IMG/VR virus record: IMGVR_UViG_3300030503_000566
Location: 21,558-85,557 of that record
Length of the DNA: 64,000 bases
Direction: 5' to 3' (one strand)
Source: a virus
Shown: piece after piece, positions 905 through 32,481 of the stretch
Layout of the letters: every line of letters starts with the position of its first letter
Position numbering within the stretch: the first letter of the stretch is position 1
Notes under the pieces: generated by a model
What the model was told of the DNA's origin: nothing
The model's input: the letters and a program-made list of their open reading frames with translations, nothing else
The model's database searches: none
Program-made: the position numbers and the translations under genes

Positions 905-1975
905 TTATATTGTTGGTAAAAAATAGGAACCATCCATTATACTCTGATAGGAAAAACTGGACATATTTGAAGGTTTAGGTAACTCCTTAAAGAAACCAGT
1001 TGCTCCTTGCATACCCATCCCTATATTTATGTCACTCTCACCATAAGAATTCTTTAGGATTGATATACTCCTGAAGTGCCTCTCACCATTCTCACTTACA
1101 AATTGATCTGCATCATAGGAGAGATTCTTAGTTCTATATCTTAAAGGTTCAAATATACTTAATAATTGATCACAATCCTCTGCTGGTCTACCACTCTCTT
1201 TAACATCATCGATGGTTGGCTCGAAGCTCTCTTGCTTACTGTAGAGAGGATTATTGAGACCTCTGGTAAGCTGAGCAACATCTACAGGAGCATACCCAAG
1301 ATAGTCCCTTGACCACTGTGCATATTCAGATAGCTTATCAATAGCTTCTTTTTTATTCATTTTACTCTCTACTTTTACTAGACCATGATGATCAAATATA
1401 GGAATAACTACCTCATTAGGGTCATTAGGGTGATAAATCTTGGTGAACTCATCTATAACTTCCTCAGTCCCATGGGATAAGGCGTATCTCTTAAGAACTT
1501 TATATATACCAGTAGGGTTTTGAGGGCCTTCAATAATCTCTACCATATTCATTAGTTCATCTATATAGTCTTCGTACATCTCAAAGTATGCCCTCTCTGT
1601 GTCATTTATTTTATTCTCCCACCATCCTAACAATTTTGCTATTGGTATAAGTACTCCATGATCTAGGAAGATTTTTCTTGAGACCCATTTAGCTAAAGTG
1701 AGTACCTTACTCCTCTCCATAGAGAAGAGAAAGACTTTCATTCTTATATTCCTTTTATTAGCTTTACTTCTTATAAAATCAAAGGGATTAAGGATAAATG
1801 CATTGTGAACAAATGCACTTTTACCACTCCCACTAGGTCCGAAAACTAAGGTATATATCCTTTTATTAAGGCGCACAAATTTATTTAATCTAGGAAAACC
1901 GATAGGGAGACCCTCATTTTCTCCGAGAATCCCCCTATCAACCTCCTGTCTTAGTAGTGAAAACTCTGAACTCAT
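905..1975 (-). CDS. dnaB: DnaB-like replicative helicase
   Basis: GLPIGFPRLN, Walker A GPSGSGKS, FLFSME, IFDH, AQL-R, ILKNSYG; RecA/DnaB motif order. Confidence 0.85.
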   Translation of the reverse strand: MSSEFSLLRQEVDRGILGENEGLPIGFPRLNKFVRLNKRIYTLVFGPSGSGKSAFVHNAFILNPFDFIRSKANKRNIRMKVFLFSMERSKVLTLAKWVSRKIFLDHGVLIPIAKLLGWWENKINDTERAYFEMYEDYIDELMNMVEIIEGPQNPTGIYKVLKRYALSHGTEEVIDEFTKIYHPNDPNEVVIPIFDHHGLVKVESKMNKKEAIDKLSEYAQWSRDYLGYAPVDVAQLTRGLNNPLYSKQESFEPTIDDVKESGRPAEDCDQLLSIFEPLRYRTKNLSYDADQFVSENGERHFRSISILKNSYGESDINIGMGMQGATGFFKELPKPSNMSSFSYQSIMDGSYFLPTI

Positions 1976-3033
1976 TCCTTTTCTTTTAATAAGAATTGAT
2001 TAGATATTACCTTAAACGAAATTGTCCTCTCTAAGTTTCTCAACACCAAGCCCTCTCTTGAGGTTTTAGGGTTGAGCACTGATGGACCATCAGCAAGTTT
2101 AATCAAATCTTCAATTTCTTCTGGTAGTTCAAATCTATCACTTAAAAAAGGTACGTGCTCTATTTGTAGTAGGCCACAATAGTTTTGGAATTTAAACATA
2201 TTCATATATTGTTGATTGTCAATATCAAATATGTTAAAAGCTTTAATTGTATTACCTTTAAGATTATAAGGATTTCCTTGAATACCTTCACCTATTAATT
2301 CCCCTTGGAGGCAAATATTCTCATTAATTCCTCTCATATATTCTTCCAACCTTAAATTTCTGGTAGCTTTCCAAAATGCATTTCCTTCAGTTTCAATCAA
2401 TTCTAGGTTCCTACTACATACACCAAAAGTATCATTATTTAGATAACAGGTAAAGGAGGAACCATCTAATTTCTCACTGACATAATATTTACTCTTCTTT
2501 AAATTCTCATATATCCCTGAGAGATTTTGTATCCTCTCCTCATCTGTTTTCCTAAGGAAAGCTGGAAAATTACCTTTTACTTTACCCCCTAGTCGTGCGG
2601 GTACCGGTGGGTCCCACTTAACTACTCCTAGCTCATCAGTTACGTCATTCCCAATGTTAAATCCATCTCTTACAATATAATTTTCTGCACAGTCGCAGTA
2701 TCTTTTATCTGGTAAAATACTAATATCTGGTAAAATACTAACTGGTAATACCAACCCTTGAGATATTTGCCCCCTAAGTTTAATAGTTTTTAGTCTTAAA
2801 CCCTCTATATCCCCCATTTTTCTATAGGAGTTCTTCTTCAAAAACTCATACTTCTCCTCTAATGGTAGGAAGCTATCTACCTCAAAGTATACACAGAGAT
2901 CTCCTACCTTAAATTCTCCTTTTTTTACTACTACCTTCCATCCCCTGACTGTCGCAACCTCTATATTATCAGAATTTGGTATTTCTTCCAAATTCACTAT
3001 CTTTTCAATTGTTGCTAATTTTCTCTCTTCCAT
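1972..3033 (-). CDS. ATP-dependent RNA ligase (Rnl2-like/DRB0094 type) with N-terminal OB-fold
   Basis: SEKLDGSS (KxDG adenylation motif), QGELIG, FNIF, REGLV, FKVISN; N-terminal GWKVVVKKGEFKVGD. Confidence 0.9.
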   Translation of the reverse strand: MEERKLATIEKIVNLEEIPNSDNIEVATVRGWKVVVKKGEFKVGDLCVYFEVDSFLPLEEKYEFLKKNSYRKMGDIEGLRLKTIKLRGQISQGLVLPVSILPDISILPDKRYCDCAENYIVRDGFNIGNDVTDELGVVKWDPPVPARLGGKVKGNFPAFLRKTDEERIQNLSGIYENLKKSKYYVSEKLDGSSFTCYLNNDTFGVCSRNLELIETEGNAFWKATRNLRLEEYMRGINENICLQGELIGEGIQGNPYNLKGNTIKAFNIFDIDNQQYMNMFKFQNYCGLLQIEHVPFLSDRFELPEEIEDLIKLADGPSVLNPKTSREGLVLRNLERTISFKVISNQFLLKEKE

Positions 3034-3736
3034 TATTTTCTAAGGTACTTTTATATATTAAAACTTTCCTAGTATCACTTGCTAAATGACCTAGATGTAC
3101 ATACATATCATATGCTTTATGATCTGGATCAGCTAATTTCTCACACTCTAGGTATAGAGCATCTTTTACCGCCTTGCCATTAGAATAATGTTTATGTTCA
3201 ATTATTATATCGGCAAAATAATGGATGTTATTAATCCTTATACCTAAATCTTTCCAATAATTGTCTATATAGAAATGAGTCAATGTGGGAGGAGCCATGG
3301 ACCCAACAGCTTCAACTATCTCTCTATGGATGAAGATATTATTAGGGAGTATCTCCCCTTGTAAAAGATCATTACAATAAACAATACCCCTATTCTCCTC
3401 TATCTTATTTACTACTCTATCTTCCCAGTTTTCAGTTTGAAAAACACAATCATCCCCCATAAATGCAACACCTATAGAGGGACCAAAGTCTCCTCTTATA
3501 ATTCCTTCAGCTACAATATTTAGCTTAGGTGTTAGCATATATCTTTTATCCAAAACTACTACAGTTACTCCCATCCTCACCTCTTCAAATAACCTTTTAT
3601 ATTTATTTGTTTCGTCTTTATCTATCACTACTAACATCTCTGTCCTCTCACCCCTAGTTTTAGTATAGCTATCTATTAGATCCCATAAAGACTCTCTACC
3701 TCCTCTTGAGGGTACTATAATAAATACTTTCTTCAT
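3005..3736 (-). CDS. GT-A fold glycosyltransferase (GT2-like)
   Basis: IIVPSRG start, FMGDD DxD-like motif, HFYIDN, IEHKH. Confidence 0.8.
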   Translation of the reverse strand: MKKVFIIVPSRGGRESLWDLIDSYTKTRGERTEMLVVIDKDETNKYKRLFEEVRMGVTVVVLDKRYMLTPKLNIVAEGIIRGDFGPSIGVAFMGDDCVFQTENWEDRVVNKIEENRGIVYCNDLLQGEILPNNIFIHREIVEAVGSMAPPTLTHFYIDNYWKDLGIRINNIHYFADIIIEHKHYSNGKAVKDALYLECEKLADPDHKAYDMYVHLGHLASDTRKVLIYKSTLENNGREKISNN

Positions 3737-19556: not shown

Positions 19557-20397
19557 TTAGAGTGGATTCATAAGGAGGATATTTACCTCATATAAATAAC
19601 CTAGTTTTCCCAGTGCTAGTAATACTCCCTCCTTGTTATTTGAGGGGCCAAGATTGGGAAGAATCTCTCCACATGTACTAGAGGTGGGTTGAAGTTCTAC
19701 TATTTCAAAAGTGAGTAATAATGGGCTCATCTCTGTGCCCCCACCTGTAGTGATCTCTTTTTTGTATGTGAATGAGACAAAGTATTTTTTCATTCGTATA
19801 ACGTATTTAATAGAGTTAATATTCCAATTATGATAATAAAAAACAGAAAGATAATTGTAGTGACTTTTCTATCCCTATCATCATCGTTAGGAGTAAATGA
19901 AGTTGTATCATGAATCATATACCTTTGGTTTTATCTTTCTCAAGATCGGATATTCTTTTTTCCAATCCCTCAACCTTTGTAGCAAGGTTAATGATACTGG
20001 CTGATATCTTGCTAATTAACTGATCTAAACTACTCATTGTTATAGCTATCTCGATCATTTGTTGGGCTAATTCTTCCATAAAATTGTTAATTTTAACATT
20101 AATAATAAATAAAATGGCCCCTTGTAGAAACAAGAGGCCCAACTTAACTCTAAATTACAAACGCTACAATTACTTTAATTGAGGGAATATTAGCATCTCC
20201 CATACACTGAGTTTAGATTCAGTAGTTTCAGGGGTAGCCTCCATCAGATCTTTACTAAGATCCCTGAAGAATTGTAATTTGGTAGCATCTGCAAACGGTT
20301 GGGTACTTATACCCTCCATTAGAGTTATTAATTTCTCGAAATTAGGACTAGAGCCTCTTATTTGAGCAAGCTCTTGCTCTGTCAATAAATGTTGCAT
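19557..20397 (-). other. short hypothetical ORFs (19557-19793, 19790-19918 single-TM 42 aa, 19915-~20080, 20170-20397)
   Basis: ATGA-coupled ORFs; terminator-like hairpin at 20111-20140. Confidence 0.55.
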
Positions 20398-20423
20398 AGA
20401 TTTTTGTTATTTAGAGTTTAAAA

Positions 20424-20621
20424 TTACACACTCCCACTTCTACTCCAACTCCCACTCCAACCCCAACTCCCACTCCCACTCCCACTTCTACTCCAACTCC
20501 CACTTCTACTCCCACTTCTACTCCCACTTCTACTTCTACTCCAACTCCCACTCCCACTCCCACTCCCACTCCCACTCCCACTTCTACTCCTGTATAATTT
20601 ATTCTGATGTGAGGTAATCAT
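20424..20621 (-). CDS. RS/SG/SW dipeptide-repeat peptide
   Basis: MITSHQNKLY then ~27 dipeptides, nearly all Ser-x, built from AGT-NNN hexamers; ATGA overlap with the upstream Sm-like gene. Confidence 0.6.
   Translation of the reverse strand: MITSHQNKLYRSRSGSGSGSGSGSGSWSRSRSGSRSGSRSGSWSRSGSGSGSWGWSGSWSRSGSV
20547..20582. repeat. (CCCACT)6 perfect hexamer tract within a longer degenerate array (20430-20590)
   Basis: Read directly; the minus strand is (AGTGGG)6. Confidence 0.9.
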
Positions 20622-20896
20622 AAAGTTGATTTAAAAGATTCACCGAAAGATTCAATTGCTGAATTTTGTATATACCATTCAGAGGCAAGTTTTTGAGCAT
20701 CTTTAAATTTACTATCACTAAAAGCTCCTGTTTCAAAGACTTGATATACATCCTTTAATTTAATACAACTTTCATTTACTCCTACTAATTCACCATAGTA
20801 AAAGTAATTAAAGCAAAAAATAAGAACTTTCTTACCTAATAGTGCAAATAAACCCTCTATAGGGACATCGATAACTTGTGTTGGTAACATTTTCAT
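20618..20896 (-). CDS. Sm/LSm-fold protein
   Basis: LLGKKVLI....Y.GELVGVN...I.L.D (Sm1-like) and WYI...AI.SF (Sm2-like). Confidence 0.65.
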   Translation of the reverse strand: MKMLPTQVIDVPIEGLFALLGKKVLIFCFNYFYYGELVGVNESCIKLKDVYQVFETGAFSDSKFKDAQKLASEWYIQNSAIESFGESFKSTL

Positions 20897-20921
20897 TTTA
20901 TTTGATTTAAGTGTTTATAAA

Positions 20922-21173
20922 TTATTTAATACCTGCGTGTTGTTTTATATAATCAAGATTGTTATTGATGGATATGATCTCTTCTGGTAATAAGGGGAAG
21001 CCCATTCTATATCTGCATTTAAATTCTCCCTCCTTAAAGTCAAATAGATGACGAGGGCTAGTGTTCTTATAAGTATTGCGATATAACCTACTCATCGCAG
21101 AGTAGGCATCAGAATCTAAAAGTGATTCCATGTATAAAGGTGGTCCCTCTTCAATTCTCTTTTCCATCTTCAT
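20922..21173 (-). CDS. hypothetical protein
   Basis: 83 aa co-oriented ORF. Confidence 0.5.
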   Translation of the reverse strand: MKMEKRIEEGPPLYMESLLDSDAYSAMSRLYRNTYKNTSPRHLFDFKEGEFKCRYRMGFPLLPEEIISINNNLDYIKQHAGIK

Positions 21174-21421
21174 GTTGGTTTATATATTCAAGGGTGGTAT
21201 TATAGGCAGTTTTTTGGCTCCCTTTTCTTATAAGCTTATGGAGATCTTTAGGCTCCTCAAGCATTAGCTGATTCCACTCCTCTTGGAGCTTATTAATCCT
21301 CATTTTTAACCAAGATTTAATCTCTTCCATTATTGTGTGTATTCGGTTGTATTATTACTGCTAGGATTATAAATACTAACAGTAGAATGAATGCCATAGT
21401 AAATAACATAAAATGGTGTAT

Positions 21422-21874
21422 TTAATAGTTTTTTAGCAAGAATTCCTCCTGCAATTCATGTTTAAACTCATAGTGAAACCTCTCTTTCTCCTCTTTAATA
21501 GCATCTTTGACTGACCATCCAAGAGCTACTCTAGCCAATACAGAGAATGTAGAAGTTCTACCATGCCCATGAGTACAGTGTATAAGAGCAGGTTCTCTAA
21601 GCTTTGTTACATCTGCAATGAACCTGTTAGCCTGTATCACAGTAGGAATTTCATGATCCTTGACTCTGAACTGTTTTATCTTTATCCCTATACCTTTTAC
21701 TGATCTTATATCAATATTCTCAGGTCTAAGATCAAATATTACCTTGATTCCCAATACGTTATGTAACCACTTATATTCATACCTATAGAGAGGTTGAGCA
21801 CTACGGTATATATTTCTCCCCTCATCTAGTATACCAAAATTCCTAAGGGGAACTAGTCCAAACTCCTTTTTCAT
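21422..21874 (-). CDS. cysteine-dependent (dual-specificity/PTP superfamily) phosphatase
   Basis: IYRSAQP, IFDLR, VKDH acid loop, P-loop HCTHGHGRT (CX5R). Confidence 0.88.
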   Translation of the reverse strand: MKKEFGLVPLRNFGILDEGRNIYRSAQPLYRYEYKWLHNVLGIKVIFDLRPENIDIRSVKGIGIKIKQFRVKDHEIPTVIQANRFIADVTKLREPALIHCTHGHGRTSTFSVLARVALGWSVKDAIKEEKERFHYEFKHELQEEFLLKNY

Positions 21875-21896
21875 TAGTTTAAATTTAAGAATTAAG

Positions 21897-21970
21897 TAGG
21901 CTCATCAAGACTTGAACTTGAAACCCCCAAGGTATAAGCTTGGTGCTCTAACCAATTGAGCTATAAGCCC
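21897..21970 (-). tRNA. tRNA-Ile (anticodon UAU)
   Basis: GGGCTTA/TGAGCCT acceptor stem, D-arm AGCTCAATTGGTTAGAGC, CCAAG-CT TAT AC-CTTGG, TCAAG-TTCAAGT-CTTGA; no encoded CCA. Confidence 0.9.
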
Positions 21971-21977
21971 ATAAAAA

Positions 21978-22161
21978 TACAACCTACAATTAGCTCGGTT
22001 GTCTTATGGCTTATTACTGAGCATGTCCCTCCTCAGTTTATCTGGCTAATCAGATATTTGCAGCTACCTATATATTGCTGTTTTGCCATAGGCCCAAACC
22101 CCTATGATCCTGAACTTTCGCCCTTACAGCAGCTTTTTTCCTTGTACTTCGGTATACAGGC
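21978..22161 (-). ncRNA. candidate multi-hairpin structured RNA upstream of tRNA-Ile
   Basis: Three-way junction TGCTGT/ACAGCA with GGGC-GAAA-GTTC and CATAGG/CCTATG; three more hairpins, two with complementary loops ATTAGC/GCTAAT. Confidence 0.55.
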
Positions 22162-22334
22162 ATATTAAAAATCAAGGCTAGATCTTATTGGAACCCTGCA
22201 AATAGTACTCCAATGAGTTTATTTATGAAGAAACAACATTACAATCATGAGCTTACTATGATGAGGTCTTGCCTCAATAAACTTCATTGCTATAGCATCT
22301 AAGTCTATCTTATCCATAGTAATAAATTTAAAAG

Positions 22335-22742
22335 TTAAAGTCTTTTATCAGTATGAAACTGTTGAATTTGCTGACCCTGATTTACCCAGCTTCCCGGCCC
22401 CATATCATCAGGACGATAATAGACTGTATGACAACTCTCACATTGCTTTTTCTCCTTGTTCAGAGTACTGATATCATGCAGTCGACCACCATCTTCAGGA
22501 CATTCATTATTGCATATCTTTTCGTAGTTGTTCATAGATAACTTGTTTAAACGTTCTGTTTTTGCTGTATCCAGTTTAAGCATAATAACATCTTGATCAG
22601 TGGAAATCATAGATAATTGATTTAAAGAATTAAATAAAGCTAGTTCTTTGTGTTTTACTCTTAGGGTAGCTGTACCTCTCACCACTGGAAAACTAGCAAG
22701 CCGCTGCTTCTTTAGTAAGTTAATGATACCCAAGTTATACAA
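22335..22742 (-). CDS. hypothetical protein with Zn-ribbon-like CPxD...CxxC
   Basis: ECPEDGG...QCESCH; start codon uncertain. Confidence 0.55.
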   Translation of the reverse strand: MYNLGIINLLKKQRLASFPVVRGTATLRVKHKELALFNSLNQLSMISTDQDVIMLKLDTAKTERLNKLSMNNYEKICNNECPEDGGRLHDISTLNKEKKQCESCHTVYYRPDDMGPGSWVNQGQQIQQFHTDKRL

Positions 22743-22838
22743 GGTTCATAACCCCTTGAATCAGTATACGTCTATACTGCTTGTACATGGTCTAATCCAT
22801 ACGCTACTCCTTTGAGATATAACTTAAGTATCAAAGAG

Positions 22839-29377: not shown

Positions 29378-30112
29378 ATGAGGACGTACTATTGGACTAA
29401 AAAACCTAATTTTGGAGATCTCCTAACCCCTCTTCTATTAAAGAGGTTTACGGGCTTGCCCTCCACCCTCTCTACTCCACAGGATGCTGAATTAGTTATG
29501 GTGGGTTCTATCCTGCATCATTTATCATCTGACTATAAAGGGGTAATTGCTGGGTGTGGTGCTTTACAACCACTTCATTATTGGTTTCCTAAAGCTAATA
29601 TATTAGCAGTAAGGGGGCCATTGACATTACACTCTATTAAAAGTAAAAAGGGCTATATAGTACTAGGTGATCCGGGGTTATTAGCTGATGAACTTGTGCC
29701 TCCTCAAGATAGGATATATGAGTTGGGAGTAGTACCACATTGGAGTGATACACAACTTGCTAAAGATGAACGCTTTACTAAATATGATCCTAAGATTATA
29801 GATGTAACTCAAGACCCACTGAAGGTGATTACTGAGATTGCTCAGTGTAAAAAGATTGTCTCCTCATCCCTACATGGTATCATATTAGCAGATGCTTTTT
29901 ATATCCCTAGGAGGATTGAATTGGCTCCCGATATGATAAGTAATCCTTTTGAGGGGGGAACATTTAAATGGGAAGACTATTCCCTCTCTATAGGTATGAA
30001 ATTTAAGACAGGGCTTACACAGGAACCTGAAAGAAATAAAATCACAGAACGGCAACATGAACTTTATGATGTTATGCAGGAGATCAAGGGAATTTTTAAA
30101 AAGACTATATAG
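29378..30112 (+). CDS. polysaccharide pyruvyltransferase family (ExoV-like)
   Basis: NFGD.L, VGSIL, AVRGPLT, GDPGLL, GVVPH, SSSLHGIILADAF.IP. Confidence 0.88.
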   Translation: MRTYYWTKKPNFGDLLTPLLLKRFTGLPSTLSTPQDAELVMVGSILHHLSSDYKGVIAGCGALQPLHYWFPKANILAVRGPLTLHSIKSKKGYIVLGDPGLLADELVPPQDRIYELGVVPHWSDTQLAKDERFTKYDPKIIDVTQDPLKVITEIAQCKKIVSSSLHGIILADAFYIPRRIELAPDMISNPFEGGTFKWEDYSLSIGMKFKTGLTQEPERNKITERQHELYDVMQEIKGIFKKTI

Positions 30113-30113
30113 A

Positions 30114-30998
30114 ATGTTTTTTAAGAAGAGACCTGTTATTTCCTTATTGATACCCTTCTCCTCGAAGGACCCACTTAGAAAGAAGAACTTCAAGTGGCTT
30201 CTTCAGTATTGGAGGTATGAGTTACCTGAGGCTGAGGTAGTTGTAGGTAAATCCTCCTCCAAGATCTTTTGTAAAGGAGAGGCACTTAACGATGCAGCCT
30301 CAAGAGCTAGGGGAGATATATTTGTTATACTGGATGCAGATGCCTACCTGAATGGATATATACTTAGGGAGTGTGCTAATTCAATATTGCAATCACTTAA
30401 GGAGGGATACCCTTTGTGGTATGTACCTTATAGAAATCTGTATAGGCTAAAAGAGGGTATAACTAAAGCTGTAGTAGCCTCTAATCCTCGTAATCCCCTA
30501 AGACTAACCCCATTAGATAACTGGATTTTGGCTGAGGAGGGTGGTGCTAAAGCAAGATATGGACATAGGTATGGTGCTATGTGTATGATGTTCCCTAGGG
30601 AGGCCTATGATCTTATAGGTAACTTTGACGAGAGATTTAAAGGATGGGGTGGAGAGGATGTTGCTCTACTCAGAATGCTGGATACTCTATATGGGAAACA
30701 TAAAACAGTTGAGGAGAATATATATCATCTTTGGCATCCCACTATAGGTGATAGCTATGATACTAGGAGATGGGTGGGCCAAGATTCTGGATCTATAAAT
30801 TGGTCACTAGCAAAGCGTTATAATAGGGCGGTTAGATGGCCCTCCCGTATGCAGGAGATACTTGAGGAGAGTCAGTACTATTATAAGTACAAGGTTGAGA
30901 GTAAGGATGAGTATCCTGACTATGAGACTGCTGTAAAGCGAGGACATCTCCCCTCCATAGAGAATATTAGAGATCTTTTAAAAAGAATAAATAAATAA
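30114..30998 (+). CDS. GT-A glycosyltransferase (GT2 with GT7-type C-terminus)
   Basis: ISLLIPF, KG.ALN.AA..A.GD..VILDAD, GNFDERFKGWGGED, YHLWH. Confidence 0.88.
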   Translation: MFFKKRPVISLLIPFSSKDPLRKKNFKWLLQYWRYELPEAEVVVGKSSSKIFCKGEALNDAASRARGDIFVILDADAYLNGYILRECANSILQSLKEGYPLWYVPYRNLYRLKEGITKAVVASNPRNPLRLTPLDNWILAEEGGAKARYGHRYGAMCMMFPREAYDLIGNFDERFKGWGGEDVALLRMLDTLYGKHKTVEENIYHLWHPTIGDSYDTRRWVGQDSGSINWSLAKRYNRAVRWPSRMQEILEESQYYYKYKVESKDEYPDYETAVKRGHLPSIENIRDLLKRINK

Positions 30999-32259: not shown

Positions 32260-32332
32260 GGAGATATAGTTCAACTGGAAAGAATAGAGGCCTTCTAAGC
32301 CCCTGATGATGGATCATCCCCATCTATCTCCT
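32260..32332 (+). tRNA. tRNA-Arg (UCU), atypical T-loop, possibly degenerate
   Basis: GGAGATA/TATCTCC acceptor stem, GAGGC-CT TCT AA-GCCCC with one mismatch, T-arm GATGG-ATCATCC-CCATC. Confidence 0.7.
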
Positions 32333-32363
32333 CAAATATATGAATTGAAAGTGAATGTACAAA
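32333..32363 (-). promoter_or_regulatory. Bacteroidota-type promoter for the HNH gene
   Basis: Minus strand TTTG-N19-TATATTTG. Confidence 0.6.
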
Positions 32364-32406: not shown

Positions 32407-32479
32407 GGCGGGTTAGAGAAGTGGTTATCTCGCTAGGCTCATAACCTAGAGATCGTTGGTTCGAATCCTTCACTCGCTA
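32407..32479 (+). tRNA. tRNA-Met (CAU; could be Ile2)
   Basis: GGCGGGT/ACTCGCT acceptor stem, CTAGG-CT CAT AA-CCTAG, GGTTCGAATCC; two T-stem mismatches. Confidence 0.85.
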
Positions 32480-32481
32480 CT

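Follow-up and report, generated by a model that had tools for sequence, protein, structure and literature searches.

The window analysed here, a stretch of 64,000 nucleotides from an IMG/VR virus record (IMGVR_UViG_3300030503_000566, positions 21,558 to 85,557), carries on its minus strand a gene for a 92-residue Sm-fold protein followed by a gene for a 65-residue microprotein of alternating X-Ser dipeptides. The two genes constitute a real, widespread cassette, which is the sole conserved functional unit of the stretch under study. The original prediction, made from the letters of the window, had placed these genes in a larger system together with a CX5R phosphatase, a tRNA-Ile, a structured non-coding RNA and perhaps an RNA ligase. 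These five parts do not make up a real RNA-handling module; phosphatase, tRNA and ligase are unrelated passengers. Overall, the region is best explained, with somewhat better than even confidence, as a set of unrelated accessory genes plus one Sm-fold/X-Ser microprotein cassette.

A two-gene cassette of uncultured phages

The pairing of the two genes was examined from both sides, the co-occurrence counts being drawn from sets of up to 80 loci that represent a subset of IMG/VR. On the Sm side, 85 viral loci were fetched, giving 73 distinct loci with the window added, and 61 distinct loci (window included) had at least 300 nt of downstream sequence. An X-Ser peptide gene, defined by at least 10 X-Ser dipeptides, lies directly downstream of the Sm-like gene in 57 of these 61, which bears out the coupling originally proposed. 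In the reverse direction, viral contigs were scanned for eight GGTCNN units, yielding at least 124 stretches, and 80 loci (L095-L174) were analysed. Mixed Gly/Arg/Trp arrays with 400 nt or more of upstream sequence number 47, of which 30 stand behind an A1-type Sm-like gene (the type of the window), 14 behind an Sm-like gene of a second type and 3 behind neither; the 20 non-mixed arrays comprise 5 behind an A1-type gene and 15 behind none. The association of Sm-like and repeat genes is thus two-way.

The second partner family comprises proteins of 110-136 aa with the motif ..IRTVT..TG.L....L..AAWIADTGRF....EVEP (for example L126:426-764 and 761-1027; also L101, L114, L121, L123, L125, L157 and others). 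It is distantly homologous to the A1 type (hhalign 97.4%, E 1e-11, 71 columns) and has no Pfam match. Its peptides begin with an uncharged leader, MNAA[LV][LM]RAG[FY]D, and usually show an ATGA overlap with the partner gene; the type of leader therefore tracks the partner family, being basic for A1 and neutral for the second type. The cassette is confined to uncultured phages: outside IMG/VR it was found in one uncultured GenBank record per partner type and in no cultured phage, while a survey of 185,579 species genomes gave 8 matches, all short contigs of metagenome-assembled genomes from phyla so scattered that no host is drawn from them. The literature covered, which leaves out subscription journals, holds no description of the cassette. 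The pairing counts in both directions are new here, as are the codon analysis, the second, homologous family of partners with a leader type of its own, and the passenger status of the phosphatase, tRNA and ligase.

The 92-residue protein was modelled by AlphaFold2 (AF2), with a 33-sequence alignment as input, at a predicted local distance difference test score (pLDDT) of 90.5. The model contains a helix (H15-19) and five strands, and shows the arrangement that marks Sm/LSm proteins at the level of fold, i.e., an N-terminal helix followed by a strongly bent five-stranded beta-sheet. The top Foldseek matches are all Sm/LSm (Lsm1-7, archaeal Sm; E 3e-4, template modelling (TM) score 0.6-0.81). 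VIA, which is independent of Foldseek, places Sm/LSm chains at Z 10.8-10.0, with a root-mean-square deviation of 2.0 over 67 residues at Z 10.8, and Hfq chains lower, at Z 7.0-7.6. The Sm fold of the original prediction is upheld by these models; the protein, as modelled, has the Sm fold but is no demonstrable member of the LSM family by sequence. It has no Pfam, PHROG or NCBIfam family match; DUF6948 gave no Pfam match at E <= 1 among 33 members of the family, and an Atlas score of 0.80 to Phage_Hfq (PF23874) serves as a lead only. The family is large and anonymous, with 132 close homologues, none of them bearing a name, and 519 cluster representatives (50% identity clusters) at E <= 1e-3. 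The window protein is mildly acidic (net charge -2), and the residues invariant in the family are E14, D66, E82, Y31, Y33, N41, T56, Q68, S83 and one Lys (K89), together with G57 and an IESFG motif in the alignment.

The microprotein consists of a leader, MITSHQNKLY, followed by (X-Ser)27, in which X is Gly at 14 positions, Arg at 8 and Trp at 5; the whole peptide contains S 27, G 15, R 8 and W 5 and has a net charge of +9. The repeat, announced originally as Arg/Ser, is real and far above chance (27.0 copies by Tandem Repeats Finder), but its variable position is mostly occupied by Gly. SR proteins carry long RS/SR dipeptide runs joined to an RNA-recognition motif; here, the share of Arg at X is 8/27 for the window and 24% over all loci, and no other domain is present, so that the peptide does not qualify as an SR domain. 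Across loci, the X residues are Gly (38%), Trp (28%) and Arg (24%), together 89%, and the peptides measure 27-110 aa with a median charge of +10 and ~12% Trp. The microprotein is disordered and strongly basic. A short leader of only ~8-12 residues is conserved in relatives (M-x-[RK]-x-x-K-[QN]-K-[YWF]). In the window, the ATG of the microprotein overlaps the stop of the Sm-like gene at an offset of -1, while the offsets of the start from the partner stop range from -14 to +117 across loci, often being -1. This variability points to separate coupled genes instead of a frameshift product.

Over the loci, Ser is written as TCT (638), TCG (443), TCA (271), AGT (94), AGC (47) and TCC (40), with each locus using essentially one codon: AGT in the window (26 times) and TCA in its 79%-identical relative L003. 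As all six codons are employed, one per locus, selection for serine is indicated and there is no other explanation. Judged from the start codon, the leader and the retention of Ser across six codons, the microprotein is conserved at the level of translation. At the same time, the array changes rapidly and in frame: where the Sm genes are at least 95% identical, the arrays differ in 7/7 locus pairs (3 of which have 100% identical Sm genes), mostly by whole units.

The X codons of the window array are GGG (14), AGA (7) and TGG (5). Arg is written as AGA in 7 of 8 instances, most other loci using AGG or CGG, and the same phage has a tRNA-Arg(TCT), which reads AGA, at 32260-32333, as well as a tRNA-Met(CAT) at 32407-32480. 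Short-read assemblies from independent peat runs all break at the array (20426-20594); hence, its natural length is not readable from contigs.

Accessory genes and RNA features around the cassette

The phosphatase, the Sm-like gene, the coupled repeat open reading frame (ORF) and the tRNA-Ile all lie on the minus strand at the positions first proposed (Table 1). The P-loop HCTHGHGRT is present at residues 99-107 (C100, R106), and H99, C100, R106 and T107 are invariant in the family, giving the HCX5R(S/T) P-loop of the PTP superfamily. By Pfam, residues 7-146 of 150 match Y_phosphatase2 (PF03162; 39.1 bits, cut-off 27); PTP-NADK scores 38.3 bits (cut-off 27), DSPc stays under its cut-off, and among NCBIfam families only XopH appears, far below its threshold (20.9 vs cut-off 500 bits). 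Siw14 (1.4e-6) and AtPFA-DSP1 (1e-5) are the leading PDB sequence matches, with capping enzyme at 0.02. The AF2 model (pLDDT 92.5) gave 138 Foldseek matches at E <= 0.001, the listed top ones being all PTP-fold phosphatases: Siw14/PFA-DSP1 at ranks 1-9 (TM ~0.75), DUSP23 at ranks 10 and 16, and capping enzyme with baculovirus RNA phosphatase at ranks 32-48 (E 5e-6 to 3e-5).

HCTHGxNRT is the P-loop of capping-enzyme-type RNA triphosphatases, and the kinship with RNA 5'-triphosphatases originally suggested rested on this likeness. Metazoan capping enzyme, baculovirus BVP and DUSP11/PIR1 indeed belong to the same superfamily and share the P-loop start HCTHG, but they are weaker matches than Siw14 (0.02 vs 1.4e-6). 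Moreover, in 25 homologues (P-loop consensus HCEHGHGRTSTF) the Thr of HCTHG varies, an invariant Gly105 takes the place of the triphosphatase Asn, and Asp73 is invariant (25/25). The last residue aligns with the general-acid Asp of DSP chain 25xa, whereas cysteine-type RNA triphosphatases are not known to have a general acid. The retained DSP-type Asp73 suggests that a phosphomonoester (protein or small molecule) is a more likely substrate than pppRNA. Judged by sequence and model, the enzyme is an independent accessory phosphatase of the PFA-DSP/atypical dual-specificity type, nearest to Siw14/PFA-DSP and DUSP23. Siw14/PFA-DSP is its best match in both sequence and fold and has the CX5R P-loop in common with it; nevertheless, the phage enzyme keeps Asp73 where Siw14 has Gly, and its P-loop reads HCxHGHGRTSTF vs HCNRGKHRT. 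Siw14 of S. pombe is reported to hydrolyse pyrophosphate (PPi), polyphosphate and inositol pyrophosphates (PMC10653929). PFA-DSPs are described as having a non-canonical WPD loop without the general-acid Asp (PMC9038691), a feature that the phage phosphatase, with its Asp73, does not share. Bacteria are not known to contain inositol pyrophosphates.

The tRNA-Ile is confirmed by ARAGORN (anticodon TAT) and Rfam (67 bits). It is 76-81% identical to tRNAs of T4-like phages, and is simply an ordinary phage tRNA that decodes AUA for an AT-rich phage. The structured RNA placed upstream of it finds no support. Folding of 21971-22334 gives z = -1.04, with 15/100 shuffles folding equally well, and the z-scores of 22030-22180 are 0.06 (minus strand) and -0.10 (plus strand); Rfam at E up to 10 returns only the tRNA in the intergenic region, and the related loci hold no sequence similar to this stretch. 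A 21-nt word from the stretch occurs in 0 viral contigs and in one metagenome contig (L094), a near-identical fragment starting at ~22041. In the RNA library X24, a 183-nt contig (word depth 120) matches 22036-22176 exactly and then continues with 36 unlike letters, of which a 20-nt piece has no counterpart in the window even when 3 mismatches are allowed. As DNA contigs (X4, L094) also end at 22036-22041, the site is a strain-variable junction. A basic ORF of 35 codons with no family match (22068-22175, minus strand) lies exactly beneath this RNA contig. Two further RNA-library contigs cover 20931-21165 (X20, depth 2.3) and 20283-20425 (X24, depth 7.5). Such contigs reveal neither strand, ends nor true level, and the hints of expression are weak; the Sm-like gene and the array have no RNA-library contig, but DNA contigs break at the array too, which makes this uninformative on expression.

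The co-occurrence check that the original prediction had itself proposed was run on these parts. A relative of the phosphatase was found near 0 of the 85 Sm loci (tblastn, within 3-6 kb), and the eight other neighbouring ORFs of the window have no relative in any of them; if an antisense artefact lying across the Sm gene is set aside, no other gene cluster is common to more than 7 of the 73 distinct loci. From the phosphatase side, a profile of 25 homologues led to 7 viral loci, with an Sm-like gene or Ser-X array in 0/7 and a doubtful tRNA-like call in 1/7. This ARAGORN call (L089:4237-4310, in a 368-kb phage record) has an abnormal anticodon of just two bases, 'ga', and follows the phosphatase homologue ~800 nt further downstream. 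Whole records agree: an Sm-like gene is found in 0/5 phosphatase-carrying records (3 of them at least 90% complete) and the phosphatase in 0/5 Sm-carrying records. The window does encode a true RNA ligase (TIGR02306, 201 bits), but its proposed membership in the system fails, as a DRB0094-type ligase is present in 0/5 other Sm-carrying records, with the positive control found in Deinococcus. The first five Sm loci scanned for tRNAs contain Gln or Arg tRNAs in 2 cases and none in 3, with no tRNA-Ile. In relatives, the phosphatase, tRNA-Ile and ligase are thus not tied to the Sm gene, and they do not form one system with it.

A single RNA-maturation or ribonucleoprotein (RNP) system, in which the phosphatase acts as an RNA 5'-triphosphatase beside the Sm protein, RS peptide, tRNA, structured RNA and ligase, is accordingly very improbable. 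Its parts do share one strand within 1.8 kb, with one terminator-like site, located downstream; HCTHGHGRT does resemble HCTHGxNRT, triphosphatases are structural relatives, and the ligase is genuine. Against these stand the independent occurrence of the genes (0/85, 0/7 and, three times, 0/5), the better fit of the phosphatase to Y_phosphatase2 and Siw14 with its variable Thr and invariant Asp73, and the missing RNA structure signal.

The record, of 85,557 bases, has an estimated completeness of 73%, and the window has a G+C content of ~35%. Along with the RNA ligase, DNA polymerase, terminase, portal and major head protein are encoded in the window, whose DNA is found again across many peat metagenome runs. 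The source is an uncultured peat phage, and the cassette, phosphatase gene, tRNA-Ile and intergenic stretch all lie among small minus-strand ORFs, in a replication-side block of unrelated small accessory genes. PHROGs matched 0/8 proteins of the region. The 83-aa ORF is matched by tblastn in none of the Sm and phosphatase loci and is therefore not part of the cassette in relatives; the 59-aa ORF has no match in the related loci, and the 30-aa hydrophobic ORF is possibly a membrane peptide. The terminator-like hairpin, the only one in 19800-22800, lies downstream of the cassette, just after the ORF at 20170-20397, and may mark the end of the transcription unit. Beyond the intergenic stretch, the ORF at 22335-22742 (minus strand, 135 aa) has a Cys-rich C-terminal part and a weak PADLOC match (candidate family PDC-M01B, E 0.0011); PADLOC reported nothing else.

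Table 1. Positions of the cassette, its neighbours and other genes discussed in the text
Feature	Position	Strand	Evidence or remark
X-Ser microprotein gene, 65 aa	20424..20621	-	ORF; Tandem Repeats Finder; coupled to upstream gene
Hexanucleotide array	20429-20590	-	Tandem Repeats Finder: period 6, 27.0 copies
Sm-fold protein gene, 92 aa (modelled fold)	20618..20896	-	AF2, Foldseek, VIA
Hypothetical ORF, 83 aa	20922..21173	-	ORF listing; no family match
Hypothetical ORF, 59 aa	21151..21330	-	No family above threshold
Hydrophobic ORF, 30 aa, MLFTMAFILLLVFIILAVIIQPNTHNNGRD	21317..21409	-	Weak sub-threshold Pfam matches only
CX5R phosphatase gene, 150 aa	21422..21874	-	Pfam, PDB sequence, AF2/Foldseek
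tRNA-Ile, anticodon UAU	21896..21970	-	ARAGORN; Rfam tRNA 67 bits
Intergenic stretch upstream of tRNA-Ile	21971..22334	-	Contains the originally proposed structured RNA
Terminator-like hairpin (10 pairs, 6 G-C, T-rich tail)	20116..20139	-	Weak: 1 site vs 1.5 expected in shuffles
RNA ligase, Deinococcus DRB0094 type	1972-3033		TIGR02306, 201 bits; PHROG 968
Glycosyltransferase-like genes	3005-3736 and 30057-30998		Elsewhere in window

Possible roles of the cassette

The closest parallel to the cassette lies in eukaryotic Sm/LSm proteins. SmD1, SmD3, SmB and LSm4 carry RG/RGG tails in cis, and both systems combine an Sm fold of ~80 residues with a basic Arg/Gly-rich low-complexity segment of dipeptide repeats. 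They differ in that the phage repeat is a separate, coupled gene product instead of a C-terminal tail, alternates with Ser, has 28% Trp at X and is hypervariable, and in that the phage Sm core is acidic and has no LSM sequence match. Among phages, the nearest work concerns GoF, MotB.1 and Frd.2 of T4, small early proteins for which an LSm-like fold is predicted and a post-transcriptional function suspected (PMC12152347). No sequence relation of these to the window family was detected, and the abstract of that work names no repeat-peptide partner for them (PMC12152347).

By analogy with the eukaryotic tails, a joint mode of action can be proposed, in which the Sm-like protein would assemble as a ring, the leader of the microprotein would dock onto it, and the tail, in which Arg and Trp would act as 'stickers' between Gly and Ser 'spacers', would provide multivalent binding to nucleic acid, probably RNA. 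In early infection, the two proteins would thereby serve to sequester, chaperone or condense RNA. Taken jointly, these steps are plausible at somewhat less than an even chance. Tandem-duplicated family members (P0157, P0159, P0259), with two Sm-like domains per chain, would suit adjacent subunits of an oligomer and hint at a ring, and the agreement of leader type and partner family fits docking, although it may reflect shared descent alone. Several observations weigh against an RNA-binding assembly of this kind. LSM (PF01423) gave no Pfam match at E <= 1 in any of the 33 family members, a PDB profile search at E <= 10 returned no Sm chain, and Hfq/Phage_Hfq models showed no sequence match. The Sm uridine-binding pocket is formed by an aromatic residue, an Asn and an Arg of loops 3 and 5; in a mapping of the sequence by eye, the positions expected to correspond to this Asn and Arg read Ile/Val and Thr (Thr56) here. 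Each of the 33 aligned Sm-like proteins has a negative net charge (-1 to -6), and such acidic proteins with few conserved basic residues would seem better suited to binding a peptide than RNA. Further, a fused Sm-plus-repeat protein was not found at E <= 0.001 in a search for longer proteins, which is weak evidence; the 10 longer matches among the 150 best are N-terminal extensions, tandem Sm duplications or read-through artefacts without a repeat tail. Lastly, NGG makes up 87% of X codons, GGG occurs 584 times for Gly vs 14 for GGA and 8 for GGT, and some constraint or process at the nucleotide level thus also acts on the array.

The acidity of the Sm-like proteins and their single invariant Lys lend weight to another possibility, namely that the cationic Arg/Trp peptide is the active and potentially toxic agent (a nucleic-acid condenser, host shut-off factor, membrane-active peptide or packaged DNA-neutralising peptide), which an acidic Sm-like ring would bind and retain until its use, much as protamine-like proteins are retained by acidic ring chaperones or toxins by their antitoxins. 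The opposite charges of the partners (33/33 negative vs a median of +10), invariant residues that include three acidic ones and two Tyr beside that Lys, the tight translational coupling of an upstream 'antidote' to the downstream peptide, often by an ATGA overlap, and the travel of the cassette as a self-contained unit among unrelated genomic contexts are all consistent with it. Nevertheless, a subunit charge of -1 to -6 is small beside +10, and Ser at every second position leaves no hydrophobic face for membrane activity; this explanation is rather unlikely. There is only a small chance that the array acts mainly as nucleic acid with the peptide incidental, either as a G-rich (NGG-NNN)n element, RNA or DNA, to which the Sm-like protein would bind in autoregulation, or as a slippage-prone contingency tract. 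The NGG bias, with Gly nearly always GGG whatever the locus G+C (27-65%), the whole-unit changes between otherwise identical phages and the assembly breaks agree with such a role, but Ser persists across TCN and AGY codons, two families without a base in common, and the start codon and conserved non-repetitive leader lie in the Ser-X frame. The third G of the X codon is not obligatory, being replaced in AGA in the window and GGA in L023, and the NGG bias is attributed to concerted evolution of units that must encode Trp, for which TGG is the only codon. Highly improbable, too, is a precursor akin to ribosomally synthesised and post-translationally modified peptides, its serines dehydrated, cyclised, glycosylated or phosphorylated and the Sm-like protein serving as recognition or scaffold factor. 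The leader-plus-core layout with Ser at every second residue and the glycosyltransferase-like genes of the window would suit it; however, no modification enzyme is conserved beside the cassette (neighbour clusters occur in at most 7/73 loci), the leader has just ~8-12 residues and the Sm-like protein matches no enzyme family. The joint action of ring and docked peptide on RNA can also be carried further, to a minimal viral RNP-condensate system in which the Sm ring nucleates on RNA, the leader-docked sticker-spacer peptide condenses and sequesters host or phage transcripts and repeat slippage quickly tunes the length of the array and its Gly/Arg/Trp pattern in an arms race with the host; this extended form is decidedly doubtful.

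The passenger status of the phosphatase, tRNA and ligase averts the spread of a false 'RNA repair module' annotation. With ~160 residues in total, the pair could serve as a small, tunable tool for binding RNA or forming condensates. Should the two proteins indeed act jointly on RNA, phages would have split the eukaryote-style combination of Sm core and basic low-complexity tail into two genes, one of which evolves via repeat slippage; and were the condensate reading true, viruses of prokaryotes would possess in this cassette a counterpart to the LSm4/P-body or Sm-RG-tail assemblies.

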